This document shows positions 7,378 to 43,581 of a stretch of DNA of 64,000 nucleotides, piece after piece; positions within the stretch are counted from its first letter, which is position 1, and every line of letters begins with the position of its first letter. This DNA comes from a virus, in the IMG/VR virus record IMGVR_UViG_3300042922_000295, positions 1 to 64,000 of that record. One strand, 5' to 3'. The notes below the pieces were generated by a model that ran no database searches, had not been told where the DNA came from, and saw nothing but the letters and a program-made list of their open reading frames with translations. Both the position numbers and the translations under genes were made by a program.

Positions 7378-7848
7378 ATGACAACGAACCGGAACACCCG
7401 CCCCGCGCCCGACGCGGCGCCCGCGCCCCGCGTGCGACTCGCTACGGTCGCGACGGGCGCGCACGTCTACTACGCCACCGACGCAATCGACCACGTCGTG
7501 ACCGGGACCGTCGGCGACTCGTTCGGCATGGCCGAATTGGGCAACCGTGGTATCCGCATCCACGGTTGCGCATGCGGGACGACTCACAACGTGACCCGCT
7601 ACGCAATGGTCGTCGTCATCGACCCGTCGCCCGCGACGGTTGTCCCGGACACCCGTACGCGACGAGTCGCCTACACCATCGCGGACGTTGTTTCGTGGAT
7701 CAACAATGACGACGCGGACAATGACTATGCGGGACCGGGCGCGGCGCCCGCACCTAGCGCTACGTGCGAACACATGACGACCGTTTGCGACTCATGCGTT
7801 GACGAATGGTGCACCGACTACGCGATCACGTACATGCCGCACGCATAG
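7378..7848 (+). CDS. Hypothetical protein with C-terminal TCEH-x4-C-x2-C module
   Basis: Promoter directly upstream; module shared with 9281-9553. Confidence 0.75.
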   Translation: MTTNRNTRPAPDAAPAPRVRLATVATGAHVYYATDAIDHVVTGTVGDSFGMAELGNRGIRIHGCACGTTHNVTRYAMVVVIDPSPATVVPDTRTRRVAYTIADVVSWINNDDADNDYAGPGAAPAPSATCEHMTTVCDSCVDEWCTDYAITYMPHA

Positions 7849-7961
7849 TTCACCCGCTAGCACCTAGCGCTAGGGTGGCACATAGGCTAGACTGGTCTAT
7901 GTACCGCCCGGGAACTAGGTCCCTAGTCACCCCACCGACCCCACATAGGGAGATGTTTCAA

Positions 7962-8624
7962 ATGGCACGCACGAACACCCGCACCGCGCCCGCTACGTCC
8001 GCCAAGTCGTCCGCCACGGTCGACCCGTGGGACGCCGCCGTGGACGCCTACCACGCCGCGTCGGGCGCCGAAAAGTCCCGCGTGCGTCGGGACGCCGACG
8101 CGTCGATGCGCGCCGCGCTCATCGCCGGTGACGCGTCGGGCGCCATGGCGTGGTTGGCCGCTACCGAAAAGATGGTGGCCAGCCGCCCGACGGCCGACGC
8201 GCCCGACTACGTCGACATCGTCGCCCGTCGCATCGTGACCCTTCGGGGCGCGGCCGAATCGATCCTCAACGGGTCGACCCGTCCGGCCGGTATCCCGGAC
8301 GACGTCGACCTGTCCGCCGTCGCGGCACGCGTCGCCACGATGTCCTACGACGACGTGTCGGCCGACGACATGTCCGCCGTCGCGTCCGCAAAGGTGGCGC
8401 GGTCGGCCGTCCGACGCGACATCGCGGACGTCGTGCGCCGTGCGTTCGACGTCACCGGAAAGAACCGGTTGACGGTCGCGGCCATCGCGCGGCACGGTGC
8501 CACCGACGACTACACGCCTTCGGGCGGTGCGGTCGCGGCGCGCATGTTCGGTGGTCGCGGTGTCGACGGATTCACCGCCCACGAGGCGACGGCCGACGCG
8601 CCCCGCACGATCACCCGCGACTAG
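7962..8624 (+). CDS. Putative DNA-binding protein (C-terminal winged-helix-like domain)
   Basis: GGGAG RBS; C-terminus aligns by eye with that of 14160-15122; followed by terminator. Confidence 0.75.
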   Translation: MARTNTRTAPATSAKSSATVDPWDAAVDAYHAASGAEKSRVRRDADASMRAALIAGDASGAMAWLAATEKMVASRPTADAPDYVDIVARRIVTLRGAAESILNGSTRPAGIPDDVDLSAVAARVATMSYDDVSADDMSAVASAKVARSAVRRDIADVVRRAFDVTGKNRLTVAAIARHGATDDYTPSGGAVAARMFGGRGVDGFTAHEATADAPRTITRD

Positions 8625-8637
8625 TCACTAGTCGCCC

Positions 8638-8675
8638 AAAAGGCGCCCGTCCCCTAATCGGGACGGGCGCCTTTT
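8638..8675. terminator. Intrinsic terminator (bidirectional)
   Basis: AAAAGGCGCCCGTCCC-loop-GGGACGGGCGCCTTTT. Confidence 0.9.
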
Positions 8676-12055: not shown

Positions 12056-12346
12056 ATGAAGGCTCACATGCGCCTCACCGACCGCGAGCGCCAGTACCCG
12101 TTCCCCGAGCTCATCCAGGAGTGCCACGTCCCGGCCGGAGGCTACGACCAGATCAAGGCCAACTTCCCGGAGGTCAGGTCGACACCGCACGACCTGGGTA
12201 ACTTCTTCAGCTCGGCGCGCCGCTACCGAGCGATGTTCGAGTCCATCAACCGCGCCGCGAAGTTGGAGCGCGAGTGGAACGAGCGTCACGCGCACGACAT
12301 GACACCCGGGGCGCGCACGCGGGGCGCCCTCATCGAGGTTGTCTAG
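12056..12346 (+). CDS. Hypothetical protein
   Basis: GC3 bias. Confidence 0.75.
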   Translation: MKAHMRLTDRERQYPFPELIQECHVPAGGYDQIKANFPEVRSTPHDLGNFFSSARRYRAMFESINRAAKLEREWNERHAHDMTPGARTRGALIEVV

Positions 12347-12460: not shown

Positions 12461-12505
12461 CTCGTGCTGTACGCACAGTCCATGACCCAGATCACTGGAG
12501 GAACA

Positions 12506-13315
12506 ATGGGAAAGAAGTCACGAACCTGGGACGGCTTCTGGTCGGCCATCGAGTCGTACGTGATGGGCGCGACCATGCAGGGCAAGACGCTCTCCATGCA
12601 GCGCGCCAGGAACTTCTGGGACGACCTGGCCGACGAGCAGAAGCGTGACGCTGTCGAGGCGCTGCGCTACAAGAAGCAGAACAACAGTCAGTACCCGTCC
12701 GCGTACACCGAGATCTGGGTGGCCCTCTCGGGTTACGACCCCGAGCCGTTCAAGGACCCCGAGCTGCAGACCGGCCTGCCGACGCTCACGCACCCGGCCG
12801 ACTTCCCTCCCGGGGAGCGCTACCGGATCACGCTCACGAAGGTGAACACGAGCTGGCACTACGTGGTCGACAACCACAAGGGTCACGCCATCGCAGCCGA
12901 CAACCAGCCGACGGCGAGCGCGGCCGTCGTCGCCTCTTCGCAGGCGATGTTCGCGGACATCAACAGCCACACGACACCGCCTCGCAAGGTCTACAACTTC
13001 GTCCTCTACGACCCCGCCGGGCAGATCATCGGCAAGTCGCACGCGGTCGACATCGACGACCCGCAGACGATGATGTCCAACGTCATCAAGTACCTCGGTA
13101 AGCGCTACAACGAGGGGCCTGGCCAGGAGATCATCGAGGCGGGCGCCGGACTCAAGTTCAGGGAGTTCGACGCCGCCAACGACGAGGAGGGGGCCATCAT
13201 CCACGCCATCGAGATCGAACAGGACACCGTCCAGTTCGACAACACCTTCAACGAGTACATCTGGCCCGCCGAATCCAGCACCCGGCGCCAGGTGTTCCAG
13301 TTCACCCTGCTGTGA
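12506..13315 (+). CDS. Hypothetical protein
   Basis: GGAGG RBS before ATG 12506. Confidence 0.85.
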   Translation: MGKKSRTWDGFWSAIESYVMGATMQGKTLSMQRARNFWDDLADEQKRDAVEALRYKKQNNSQYPSAYTEIWVALSGYDPEPFKDPELQTGLPTLTHPADFPPGERYRITLTKVNTSWHYVVDNHKGHAIAADNQPTASAAVVASSQAMFADINSHTTPPRKVYNFVLYDPAGQIIGKSHAVDIDDPQTMMSNVIKYLGKRYNEGPGQEIIEAGAGLKFREFDAANDEEGAIIHAIEIEQDTVQFDNTFNEYIWPAESSTRRQVFQFTLL

Positions 13316-41595: not shown

Positions 41596-41900
41596 TGCTG
41601 ACGGTGTCGGTCAAGGTCAATGACCTCGAAGTCGCCATCGTGGAAATCAAGAACGTCCAGACGAACGAGGACGGGACTGCTAACTACGTAGCGACCTTCG
41701 AGGTTGACCGGATGGGTGCGCGAGGCCGACACCGTCGCAGGCTGTTCGGATTCCCGCGCACGCAGTACAACGCACTTGGGCTACTCAAGTTGGCCCTGGA
41801 TTCACTCGACCCGAGAGACTTGGAGCTCGAAACCGATGGGACTGGTACATCAGATCTGGCACGGCGACAGCGTGGAGCTGGCCCAGCGCTTCCACGCTAA
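41595..41900 (+). CDS. Hypothetical protein
   Basis: TGATG coupling. Confidence 0.7.
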   Translation: MLTVSVKVNDLEVAIVEIKNVQTNEDGTANYVATFEVDRMGARGRHRRRLFGFPRTQYNALGLLKLALDSLDPRDLELETDGTGTSDLARRQRGAGPALPR

Positions 41901-42564
41901 GCGTCGCATCCAGAGCGTCATCACCGACCCGCCCTTCGGCGTGGACAACCTGTCGAACATGGCGACGACGCAGGCTGGCAAGGAGTATGCCCGCAAGATC
42001 GCCAACGACGAGTCCCCCGAGGTGGCGATCAAGGTCTTCCGTGACGTCATGGAGTCCGTCATCCCCGGGATGAAGGAGGAGTCGGACATCTACATCTTCA
42101 CGGCGCACCAGGTGCTGGAGGAGTGGCTGGTGTTCACCCGGGACCTCCTGGAGCCGCACGGCTTCCGCCGCAAGGCGATCCTCGTGTGGGAGAAGGATGG
42201 CCCCGGCATGGGCGACCTCAACTCGTGGGGCATGGGCTGCGAGTTCGTCCTGTACTACAAGCGGGGCAACCGCGAGAAGTCGGACAAGCGCCGGAACAAC
42301 GTCCTGCACCTCCCGCAGCTCAGGCCGAACGAGCTCATCCACCCGCACGAGAAGCCGGAGCAGTTGCTGGAGTTGCTCCTGAAGCACTCGACGGACCCGG
42401 GCGACTTCGTCATCGACCCGTTCGGTGGTAGCGGCAGCCTCGTGCGCGCCGCTCGCCGGTGCGGCCGGTCGGCGGTCGCCATCGAGCTGGACGAGAAGAA
42501 CTACGAACTCGCCAGCAAGAAGCTCAACGAGGGCGACGGCGGAGGCTTCGACTTCGGAGTGTGA
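41836..42564 (+). CDS. Orphan amino-DNA methyltransferase (N6A/N4C, beta-class motif order)
   Basis: ITDPPF, HPHEKP, DPFGGSGS. Confidence 0.92.
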   Translation: MGLVHQIWHGDSVELAQRFHAKRRIQSVITDPPFGVDNLSNMATTQAGKEYARKIANDESPEVAIKVFRDVMESVIPGMKEESDIYIFTAHQVLEEWLVFTRDLLEPHGFRRKAILVWEKDGPGMGDLNSWGMGCEFVLYYKRGNREKSDKRRNNVLHLPQLRPNELIHPHEKPEQLLELLLKHSTDPGDFVIDPFGGSGSLVRAARRCGRSAVAIELDEKNYELASKKLNEGDGGGFDFGV

Positions 42565-42674
42565 TCGACCTGCCAGGCGGGGGCGGCGTATCCGGTAGTG
42601 CACGCACTATCACGCCGCCCCCGCTTTCGGCTACCATGACACCACCCGAAGCCCCGACCCAGCAGGAGGCACCA

Positions 42675-43028
42675 GTGAGTACGACCGAAGGCCAGGAGGT
42701 GCGGGAAGTCCACCCGTTCTCCATGGACAGGATCAGCCCTGTCATGAGCTTCGCCCCCGTCCCCGAAGTCGAGGCGGAGGTCCCAAAAGAAGAATCTGCA
42801 CCGGAGCCTGCTCCCGTGCCCGATCCGACGCCGACGACTCCGGACCCGGAGAAGAAGGACCCGGAGGACGACCCGCTCAAGGACGTGAAGGTGAGCGAGG
42901 GGGAGGCTTCGAAGAAGTCTGGGGAATCGACCTCGTCCCCCACGCCGCCCACGACCCCCGCACCCCCGGCGAAGCCTGCGACTGCGGCGAAGGTGTCGAA
43001 GAGCGACTCGCCGACTTCTTCCAAGTAG
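42675..43028 (+). CDS. Low-complexity Pro/Ser/Glu/Lys-rich protein
   Basis: AGGAGG RBS before GTG 42675. Confidence 0.65.
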   Translation: MSTTEGQEVREVHPFSMDRISPVMSFAPVPEVEAEVPKEESAPEPAPVPDPTPTTPDPEKKDPEDDPLKDVKVSEGEASKKSGESTSSPTPPTTPAPPAKPATAAKVSKSDSPTSSK

Positions 43029-43249
43029 ACACGTCATGGCAGGAGCGCGGAGCATGCTTCGGCCGGGCTCCTGCCAAGCGTGGCGAGCCTGACCCCTTCT
43101 TCCCGGAGAAGGGGTCTATCGCCTTGGCGAACAAGGCAATCAAGGAGTATTGCATGGTCTGCCCCGTGCGCAAGCTGTGCAAGCAGTACCAAGAAGAGAC
43201 TGGCTCCGTCGGAGTATGGGGCGGGCAGTACATCGGTCGAGATTCCTGA
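42962..43249 (+). CDS. whiB: WhiB-family transcription factor domain (no canonical start codon; 5' end uncertain)
   Basis: Hand translation: WQERGAC...DPFFPE...CMVCPVRKLC...GVWGG; absent from ORF track. Confidence 0.85.
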   Translation, partial: TPGEACDCGEGVEERLADFFQVDTSWQERGACFGRAPAKRGEPDPFFPEKGSIALANKAIKEYCMVCPVRKLCKQYQEETGSVGVWGGQYIGRDS

Positions 43250-43260
43250 AGGGAACAACA

Positions 43261-43581
43261 GTGAACGTCCACAAGGTCACCATCTACACGGACCCCGAGA
43301 CCGGCAAGCTCAGGTGGCGCTTCGTCCGCAAGGATGGGTCGATCCTCGCGGAGAGCACCAAGGTGTACGACACCCGCGAAGAGCTCATGGAGGACATGCA
43401 GATCGTCGTCGGCCTGTGGTTCGCCTTCGACGAGCACATGCCGGACCGCGTCAAGCAGGTCAGCCTCCACCGGAGCGAGCCGGTCGGCCTGGAGCTGCCT
43501 CAGCCGCAGGTCACCCCGGCCGAGCCCGAGGAGTCCGGCGAGGTCATCGGCGACCCCGACACCGAGGTCGAGCAGCCGTGA
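43261..43581 (+). CDS. DUF1508/YegP-like protein
   Basis: GKLRWRF...GSILAES...Y. Confidence 0.65.
   Translation: MNVHKVTIYTDPETGKLRWRFVRKDGSILAESTKVYDTREELMEDMQIVVGLWFAFDEHMPDRVKQVSLHRSEPVGLELPQPQVTPAEPEESGEVIGDPDTEVEQP

Follow-up and report, generated by a model that had tools for sequence, protein, structure and literature searches.

Comparative sequence evidence for a probable programmed −1 ribosomal frameshift leading into a startless WhiB domain of actinophages

Results

A stretch of 64,000 nucleotides (nt) of viral DNA, corresponding to positions 1 to 64,000 of the IMG/VR record IMGVR_UViG_3300042922_000295 (this whole stretch is hereafter called the window), was found to contain a WhiB domain whose reading frame has no start codon of its own. 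It is highly probable that the route to the WhiB-bearing protein is a programmed −1 ribosomal frameshift at the slippery heptamer C CCA AAA (42782–42788). An earlier note on this DNA, made from its letters alone, had proposed that WhiB is made as a programmed −1 frameshift fusion, and this was supported by in-phase heptamers in 28/28 related sequences and by a four-cysteine (Cys4) module that is invariant in the −1 frame. Judging from these relatives, the recoding is very probably common to well over a hundred related actinophages. Comparison of the sequences was sufficient to establish the site, the direction of the shift and the translation of the −1 frame.

Organization of the WhiB locus

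The open reading frames (ORFs) of positions 42400–43400 were listed and translated. The frame that encodes WhiB is open from 42599 to 43249 (216 codons) and ends with the TGA at 43247–43249. Its earliest ATG, GTG or TTG is the TTG at 43124, which lies within the domain, 3' of the Trp codon at 43037 and of the codon for the first WhiB Cys at 43055. The codon starts of this frame leave a remainder of 2 on division by three and those of ORF 42675–43028 a remainder of 0, and the WhiB frame is therefore −1 relative to this ORF, whose frame is called the 0 frame below. Within C CCA AAA G (42782–42789), CCA and AAA are codons of the 0 frame. The earlier note had described the WhiB frame as open from 42599 without ATG, GTG or TTG before the first conserved Cys, the domain as intact (four Cys, FFP and GVWGG), the frame as −1 to an ORF with a strong ribosome-binding site, and the heptamer as correctly phased. 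All of this was borne out, by the position of the first possible start, by the Pfam match to PF02467, by the codon phase together with the AGGAGG, and by the reading of CCA and AAA as 0-frame codons.

The note had further called the codons CCA AAA GAA GAA TCT atypical for this genome. With 45 putative genes of the window (13,610 codons) as the reference for codon usage, it was confirmed that rare codons are gathered around the heptamer, since AAA accounts for 1.0% of Lys codons, CCA for 5.6% of Pro, GAA for 8% of Glu and TCT for 3.7% of Ser. AGA (1.1% of Arg) and UUA (0.3% of Leu) are rare in the window as well. CCCAAAA occurs twice in the 64 kilobases (kb) of the window; the second copy, at 8635–8641, is located 11 nt 3' of the stop codon of ORF 7806–8624 and is apparently intergenic.

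Table 1. Coordinates of the features of the WhiB locus in the window. SD, Shine-Dalgarno; GC3, G+C content at third codon positions.
Feature	Position	Strand	Remarks
Ribosome-binding site AGGAGG	42664–42669	+	5 nt 5' of the GTG start of the 0-frame ORF; anti-SD duplex −10.3 kcal/mol
0-frame ORF, 117 residues, GTG start, predicted unshifted product	42675–43028	+	GC3 0.80–0.86 in the 0 frame
SD-like sequence GAGGCGGAGG, possible 5' stimulator	42771–42780	+	1–10 nt 5' of the heptamer
Slippery heptamer C CCA AAA (X XXY YYZ in 0-frame phase), putative −1 shift site	42782–42788	+	invariant heptamer types in relatives
−1 frame after the putative shift, 153 codons and stop	42788–43249	+	joined to the 38-residue leader, predicted 191-residue fusion
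Putative dual-coding overlap, 240 nt, 0 frame and −1 frame both open	42789–43028	+	openness of the tail and comparison of frames
Cys4 module, first half C-T-G-A-C (family R-x-x-C-x-G-x-C)	42797–42811	+	Cys, Gly and Cys invariant in the 13-sequence alignment A1
Local hairpin GCAC.GGAG/CUCC.GUGC, candidate	42798–42819	+	9-nt spacer after the heptamer; not conserved in relatives
Cys4 module, second half C-D-C-G-E-G (family C-x-C-G-E-G)	42977–42994	+	both Cys in 28/28; G-E-G invariant or nearly so
WhiB (Wbl) domain, W-x5-C ... FFP ... C-x2-C-x5-C ... GVWGG	43037–43246	+	Pfam PF02467

On the proposed mechanism, ribosomes would start at GTG 42675 behind the strong ribosome-binding site and make a 38-residue leader. 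At C CCA AAA a fraction of them would slip back by one base, tRNA-Pro re-pairing from CCA to CCC and tRNA-Lys from AAA to AAA, and would read on through the Cys4 module and the complete WhiB [4Fe-4S]-type domain to 43249. The ribosomes that do not slip would end at 43028 with a 117-residue protein carrying the same leader. One mRNA would in this way yield two proteins with a common N-terminus, in a ratio set by the efficiency of the slip. As to their roles, we assume that the fusion is a sigma-factor-directed regulator like other WhiB-like (Wbl) proteins, and that the short protein is a partner or competitor sharing its leader. The further idea of the earlier note, that the shift would set a low, fixed dose of the regulator, is plausible.

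Related phages and metagenomic sequences

A tblastn search with the WhiB frame against 50,697 phage records gave matches in 146 records. When a longer query from the heptamer onward was used, 126 records were obtained, comprising 105 Gordonia, 6 Rhodococcus and 6 Tsukamurella phages and a few ordinary WhiBs. The matches extended 5' of the 0-frame stop, in Camerico as far as the heptamer. Twelve annotated GenBank loci of ∼10 genera or lineages were selected, namely MrWormie (Woesvirus), Gorko (Montyvirus), Camerico, GMA7, GordTnk2, Perlina, ReqiDocB7, TIN2, Teatealatte, Jumbo, Orchid and GMA3. A scan of IMG/VR returned the same phages and one new contig of 81 kb (L026), in which a TGA stands directly 5' of CCCAAAA and the cysteine module is a CxxC ... 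CxC variant. Metagenomes were scanned with a motif from an alignment of the PK-type subset, the alignment of the Cys4 region of all 13 sequences being too diverged; five contigs of 44–63% G+C were found, with L073 as the closest relative of the window. Altogether, 28 distinct nucleotide sequences were derived from the 12 GenBank loci, 13 IMG/VR loci plus L026, and the five metagenome contigs.

The relatives share 34–58% protein identity with the window. A search of the region against the phage collection at the DNA level gave no match, so that the relatives of the window are visible only at the protein level. A tblastn search of phages with the 0-frame ORF gave no match either, because its leader is too short and its tail is of low complexity. 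As a control, 44 loci of ordinary WhiBs from the same IMG/VR scan were inspected, and every one of them (44/44) had an in-frame start 5' of the domain.

Conservation of the slippery heptamer

An in-phase CCCAAAA or CCCTTTA was found at the homologous place in each of the 28 distinct sequences, with the WhiB frame being −1 throughout, and in no relative did the WhiB frame have its own start 5' of the Cys4 module. The conservation of heptamer and frame in relatives, which the earlier note had singled out as a check of its reading, was thus strongly positive.

The 28 sequences were aligned by codon and the entropy was calculated for each position. The Pro codon of the heptamer was CCC in 28/28, with zero entropy at all three positions. 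The codon after it was only AAA (15 sequences) or TTT (13 sequences), and the Arg codon that follows was only AGA or AGG, never CGN. Elsewhere in this alignment, invariant Pro and Gly columns had a third-position entropy of 1.3–1.9 bits. It follows that the letters of the heptamer are constrained as nucleotides. This conservation runs against the strong preference of the window for AAG, TTC and CGN. In seven lineages (GordTnk2, Orchid, Jumbo, GMA3, L026, L076 and L077), a stop codon of the −1 frame was located 0–3 nt 5' of the heptamer, which means that no shift farther 5' is possible in them; the conserved RxxCxGxC begins 2–5 codons after this stop.

A shift near the 0-frame stop (43026), which the GC3 profile might suggest, was considered and rejected, because the homology in the −1 frame runs back to the heptamer and there is no slippery pattern near that stop.

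A conserved element of this kind might also act through transcriptional slippage, in which RNA polymerase would stutter on C3A4 or C3T3 and leave a minor fraction of the mRNAs shortened by one base or lengthened by two, to be read through from leader to WhiB by ribosomes that do not slip. The element does hold homopolymer runs, CCC plus AAAA or TTT, and invariant letters together with a translated −1 frame do not separate shifting at the RNA level from shifting at the ribosome. However, the runs are only 3–4 bases long here, and the slippage tracts of bacteria and phages usually have at least seven identical bases. Moreover, slippage of the polymerase needs no phase relative to the 0 frame, yet the X XXY YYZ phase has been kept in all 28 sequences. 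We consider transcriptional slippage very improbable, and the ribosomal shift is preferred.

Translation of the −1 frame

Immediately past the heptamer, the sequence encoded in the −1 frame is P-(K/F)-R-(x-x)-C-x-G-x-C, followed farther on by C-x-C-G-E-G and then by WhiB (alignment A1). The first Cys and the Gly of CxGxC occur in 28/28 sequences, and its second Cys in 27/28. The Cys and Gly codons of CxGxC and CxCGEG showed zero entropy at positions 1 and 2 of the −1 frame and 0.7–1.95 bits at position 3; the Glu codon of CxCGEG, present in 26/28, varied a little at each of its positions. Substitutions in the Gly codons of the module are non-synonymous in the 0 frame, where GGA, GGC, GGT and GGG result in Glu, Ala, Val and Gly, respectively. 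Since the Cys4 codons vary at the third position only, it was concluded that the −1 frame is translated. The 0 frame of GordTnk2, Jumbo and GMA3 stops before CxCGEG; therefore, the motif codes there in the −1 frame only and is no by-product of conservation in the 0 frame. Comparing the window with L073 alone did not tell the frames apart; the analysis of codon positions over the whole family did.

If WhiB were made alone, from a non-canonical or internal start, the upstream ORF would be an unrelated neighbour and no fusion would be formed. The annotated starts of six phages agree with this idea. Annotators placed them next to the Trp, at an ATG four codons ahead of it in GordTnk2, Jumbo and GMA3, and at an ATG or GTG directly behind it in Perlina, ReqiDocB7 and Teatealatte. 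But the window has no ATG, GTG or TTG before 43124, and its only in-frame near-cognate codons, ATC at 42794 and ATC at 42926, have no well-placed SD sequence and are not conserved, the relatives having GTC, ATA, GTT or no such residue. Internal starts would also leave unexplained the invariant heptamer and the invariant Cys4 module 5' of them, with its variation at the third position only, and two of the four cluster cysteines are missing from the 33-residue stubs annotated for Woes- and Monty-type phages. For the non-canonical start, which the earlier note had listed as an alternative to the frameshift, no conserved candidate codon was found, and we give the internal-start explanation only a small chance.

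The split of the frames could, in a single genome, be due to a 1-nt assembly or sequencing error, or to an inactivating frameshift in a former single gene of leader and WhiB that is now decaying, and one window alone would not decide the matter. Contigs from two soil-metagenome runs of two studies (57x and 1514x) showed 0 differences and 0 gaps over 42400–43400, but these two matching contigs may be the source data of the record itself; for this reason, conservation is the main argument against an assembly error. The same −1 relation and the heptamer are present in 28 distinct sequences, which come from isolates of many laboratories and from metagenomes, and purifying selection acts on both the WhiB domain and the Cys4 module. 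In addition, protein searches gave no confirmed single-frame relative, one hit (P0018) being ambiguous. An artefact or a decaying gene is hardly credible under these circumstances, and the indel or assembly error that the earlier note had also allowed for was excluded by the conservation and the two identical deep contigs.

Single-frame fused relatives of 118–378 residues were sought with a word-indexed protein search, which gave none at E ≤ 0.001. An exhaustive search of protein representatives returned ordinary WhiBs, a low-complexity artefact (P0003), a fragment from Orchid (P0009) and P0018. The last is a predicted ORF of 170 residues with KKICTSAC...CDCGQG...WhiB in one frame, behind an Arg-rich N-terminus that looks out of frame. 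When viral contigs were scanned for the DNA of P0018, only a 16-residue match was obtained. It may be a genuine single-frame form, or else one more frameshift variant that uses another slippery site. A WhiB with an ordinary start was observed in L069 (IMGVR_UViG_3300042923_000666), where a zinc-ribbon-like CPRC ... CQDC motif is N-terminal to it in the same frame, upstream of 1501, and it follows that arrangements of Cys4 plus WhiB also occur without recoding.

Predicted products

The unshifted protein would consist of the 38-residue leader and a tail rich in Pro, Ser, Thr, Glu and Lys, 117 residues in all. The leader bears the motif EVHPF ... MD in the window and xNP(V/I)xF ... DFRP in the relatives; no Pfam or PHROG family matched the leader or the tail. 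The fusion is predicted to comprise leader, Cys4 module and WhiB, with a total of 191 residues.

The WhiB part was recognized by Pfam Whib PF02467 with 38.8 bits (cut-off 23.6, E 1.4e-9) over residues 84–146 of the −1-frame translation, and by PHROG 472 (WhiB, E 2.5e-10). C92, C124, C127, C133, G144 and W146 were invariant in alignments A1 and A5, and all of them are present in the window; G148 was invariant in A1 and conserved in at least 90% of A5. The family profile matched the solved chains of WhiB, WhiB1, WhiB3, WhiB4 and WhiB7, the best match being 8dy7_H (E 2.7e-17). In AlphaFold2 models, the predicted local distance difference test (pLDDT) score over the WhiB part was 75–91 across long and compact family members (75–84 given for the WhiB domain). 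By every sequence test applied, the WhiB part is an ordinary Wbl domain.

The Cys4 module (profile positions 1–63) had no match in the PDB and no usable match in the ESM Atlas. Judging from its cysteine pattern, it is probably a metal site. The predicted order of leader, CxGxC...CxCGEG module and WhiB represents a previously unrecognised Wbl architecture.

Possible stimulators of the shift

It was observed that the anti-SD pairing in the region −18 to −3 was stronger than at control positions in 18/18 lineages (median rank 0.067, Fisher p 1e-10; the lineages are related to each other). In the CCCTTTA group, the upstream G-run also encodes a conserved Gly-Gly of the 0 frame, which is a confounder of the SD-like signal. 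The data are suggestive of an upstream SD-like element acting as a stimulator, as in dnaX. On the 3' side, the 82 nt after the heptamer in the window were calculated to fold with −29.5 kcal/mol (z −2.1), the local hairpin following a 9-nt spacer, where a stimulatory structure would be expected 5–9 nt past the heptamer; the folds 3' of the heptamer in the relatives were heterogeneous and mostly unremarkable.

Evaluation of the frameshift and the dual-coding overlap

Several observations weigh against the frameshift as interpreted here. Many efficient −1 sites carry a downstream stem-loop or pseudoknot, and no conserved one was found 3' of the heptamer; the consensus fold of 14 PK-type sequences had only −0.25 kcal/mol and no covariation. 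The −1-frame linker between the two Cys pairs is of low complexity, rich in Gly, Glu and Arg, and poorly conserved. The pLDDT of the Cys4 module was below 60 in long and compact members, so that its fold and metal binding are unsupported by the models. In GordTnk2, Jumbo and GMA3, a stand-alone WhiB might also be made from the ATG four codons before the Trp. Owing to the common ancestry of the lineages, the counts overstate the number of independent observations. The evidence for all members comes from sequence, and the slip efficiency could be very low. Finally, GC3 in the window favours the 0 frame over 42675–43028 and the WhiB frame only after ∼43037; this implies dual coding in the 240-nt overlap, more than a WhiB frame simply taking over after the heptamer.

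Past the heptamer, the 0-frame tail was open for 32–79 codons in 16/16 lineages tabulated (the window, L001–L012, L026, L073 and L074), including those of 46–52% G+C, and the third frame had 1–6 stops across the span of the 0-frame tail in these 16 lineages. The overlap is probably dual-coding, and the short product is probably functional too. In many lineages the 0-frame stop lies within ∼20 nt of the WhiB Trp codon; it is 11 nt before this codon in the window, Camerico, Teatealatte and L073. The openness of the tail and these stop positions suggest that the tail of the short product, or the position of the 0-frame stop, is under selection.

The slip might go beyond a fixed-ratio device and serve as a tunable sensor with two functional outputs, an idea that we regard as speculative and on balance unlikely. 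The A-site codons (AAA, UUA) and the first −1-frame codon (AGA/AGG) are among the rarest in these hosts, and the efficiency of the shift could thus track tRNA supply or growth state of the host. Given that the 0-frame tail is open in every tabulated lineage and that the leader motif is shared, the short protein could act on the same host target as the fusion, either competing or cooperating with it, as is the case for IS911 OrfA and OrfAB.

Genomic context and annotation

The window is part of an 84.5-kb IMG/VR virus record that is rated complete. An N6/N4 DNA methylase (PF01555, 79 bits) is encoded upstream at 41836–42561, and it is 68% identical to the methylases of Woesvirus Gordonia phages. 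From 43261 on, a small ORF and then a long ORF follow, where the relatives have a Cas4-family exonuclease. The gene order methylase, small ORF, WhiB, Cas4-like exonuclease was found in 8/12 GenBank loci; the other four have a RusA-like resolvase or small ORFs upstream. The virus of the window is an uncultured soil relative of this actinophage supergroup. Elsewhere in the window, a GGGAAAG was noticed at 12508–12514 (plus strand), between or at ORFs 12056–12346 and 12464–13315, which may be the slippery site of the tail assembly chaperone.

The annotation of the WhiB region differs among the relatives. In Woes and Monty types, a 33-residue 'WhiB family transcription factor' is annotated from an internal ATG (L001, L002 1627–1728; ON970596, MK801728), and PHROG 11832, with a profile length of 33, appears to have been built from such stubs. 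The region was left empty in the annotations of Camerico, GMA7, TIN2 and Orchid. Full-text literature searches gave no description of a WhiB frameshift; the word 'frameshift' is absent from a systematic survey of phage WhiB genes (PMC8612146), and an overview of Gordonia phages (PMC5559632) contains no description of a WhiB frameshift. If the proposed recoding holds, the annotation of more than 100 sequenced actinophages would be corrected, in which the gene is at present a 33-residue stub, an internally started fragment or nothing. Since cultured phages of Gordonia, Rhodococcus and Tsukamurella carry the putative shift, the prediction can be put to a direct test.

In tailed phages, programmed frameshifting is textbook knowledge for the tail chaperones, and a few capsid and tail proteins are also known to be made in this way. 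If a transcription factor could be reached only through a conserved frameshift, recoding would be put to a different use here, that of controlling the dose and form of an early regulator.

Comparison with known systems

The closest parallel in layout is provided by OrfA/OrfAB of the IS3 family (IS911, IS150, IS3), in which a −1 slip on X XXY YYZ fuses a short ORF to a startless, overlapping downstream ORF. Two products with a shared N-terminus arise in a fixed ratio, from heptamers of the A AAA AAG type and often with downstream structure. As in these elements, the fusion predicted in the window would add a startless domain in an overlapping −1 frame. Unlike in the IS3 transposases, the domain added would be that of a transcription factor in the early region of a phage, the slip would occur on C CCA AAA or C CCU UUA, and no 3' structure conserved among the relatives was detected.

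In Escherichia coli dnaX, which encodes tau and gamma, a −1 shift truncates the protein after one codon, and it is stimulated by an internal SD-like element and a strong downstream hairpin. The WhiB locus resembles dnaX in being a non-structural gene with an SD-like element, here enriched across lineages and only a candidate stimulator, 5' of the heptamer. It differs in that the shift would add 153 residues and two domains, and in that a long, separate tail is retained in the unshifted product.

For tailed double-stranded DNA phages, the −1 frameshift of the G/GT type in the tail assembly chaperone was reportedly described by Xu, Hendrix and Duda in 2004. The WhiB shift is similar to it as a phage −1 shift that is conserved over deep divergence, can be recognized by comparative genomics and would give one short and one long product that have the N-terminus in common. 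In contrast to G/GT, which is structural, lies in the tail module and is routinely annotated, the WhiB shift is situated in the early/replication module and was unannotated in all records examined.

WhiB of mycobacteriophage TM4 is a stand-alone phage Wbl protein. As in such stand-alone Wbl proteins, the C-terminal 70 residues of the predicted fusion form a complete domain with four cluster cysteines and the G(V/I)WGG turn. In contrast to ordinary Wbl genes, which have their own start, as in all of the controls above, and no CxGxC...CxCGEG module, the WhiB frame described here is startless and bears the Cys4 module.

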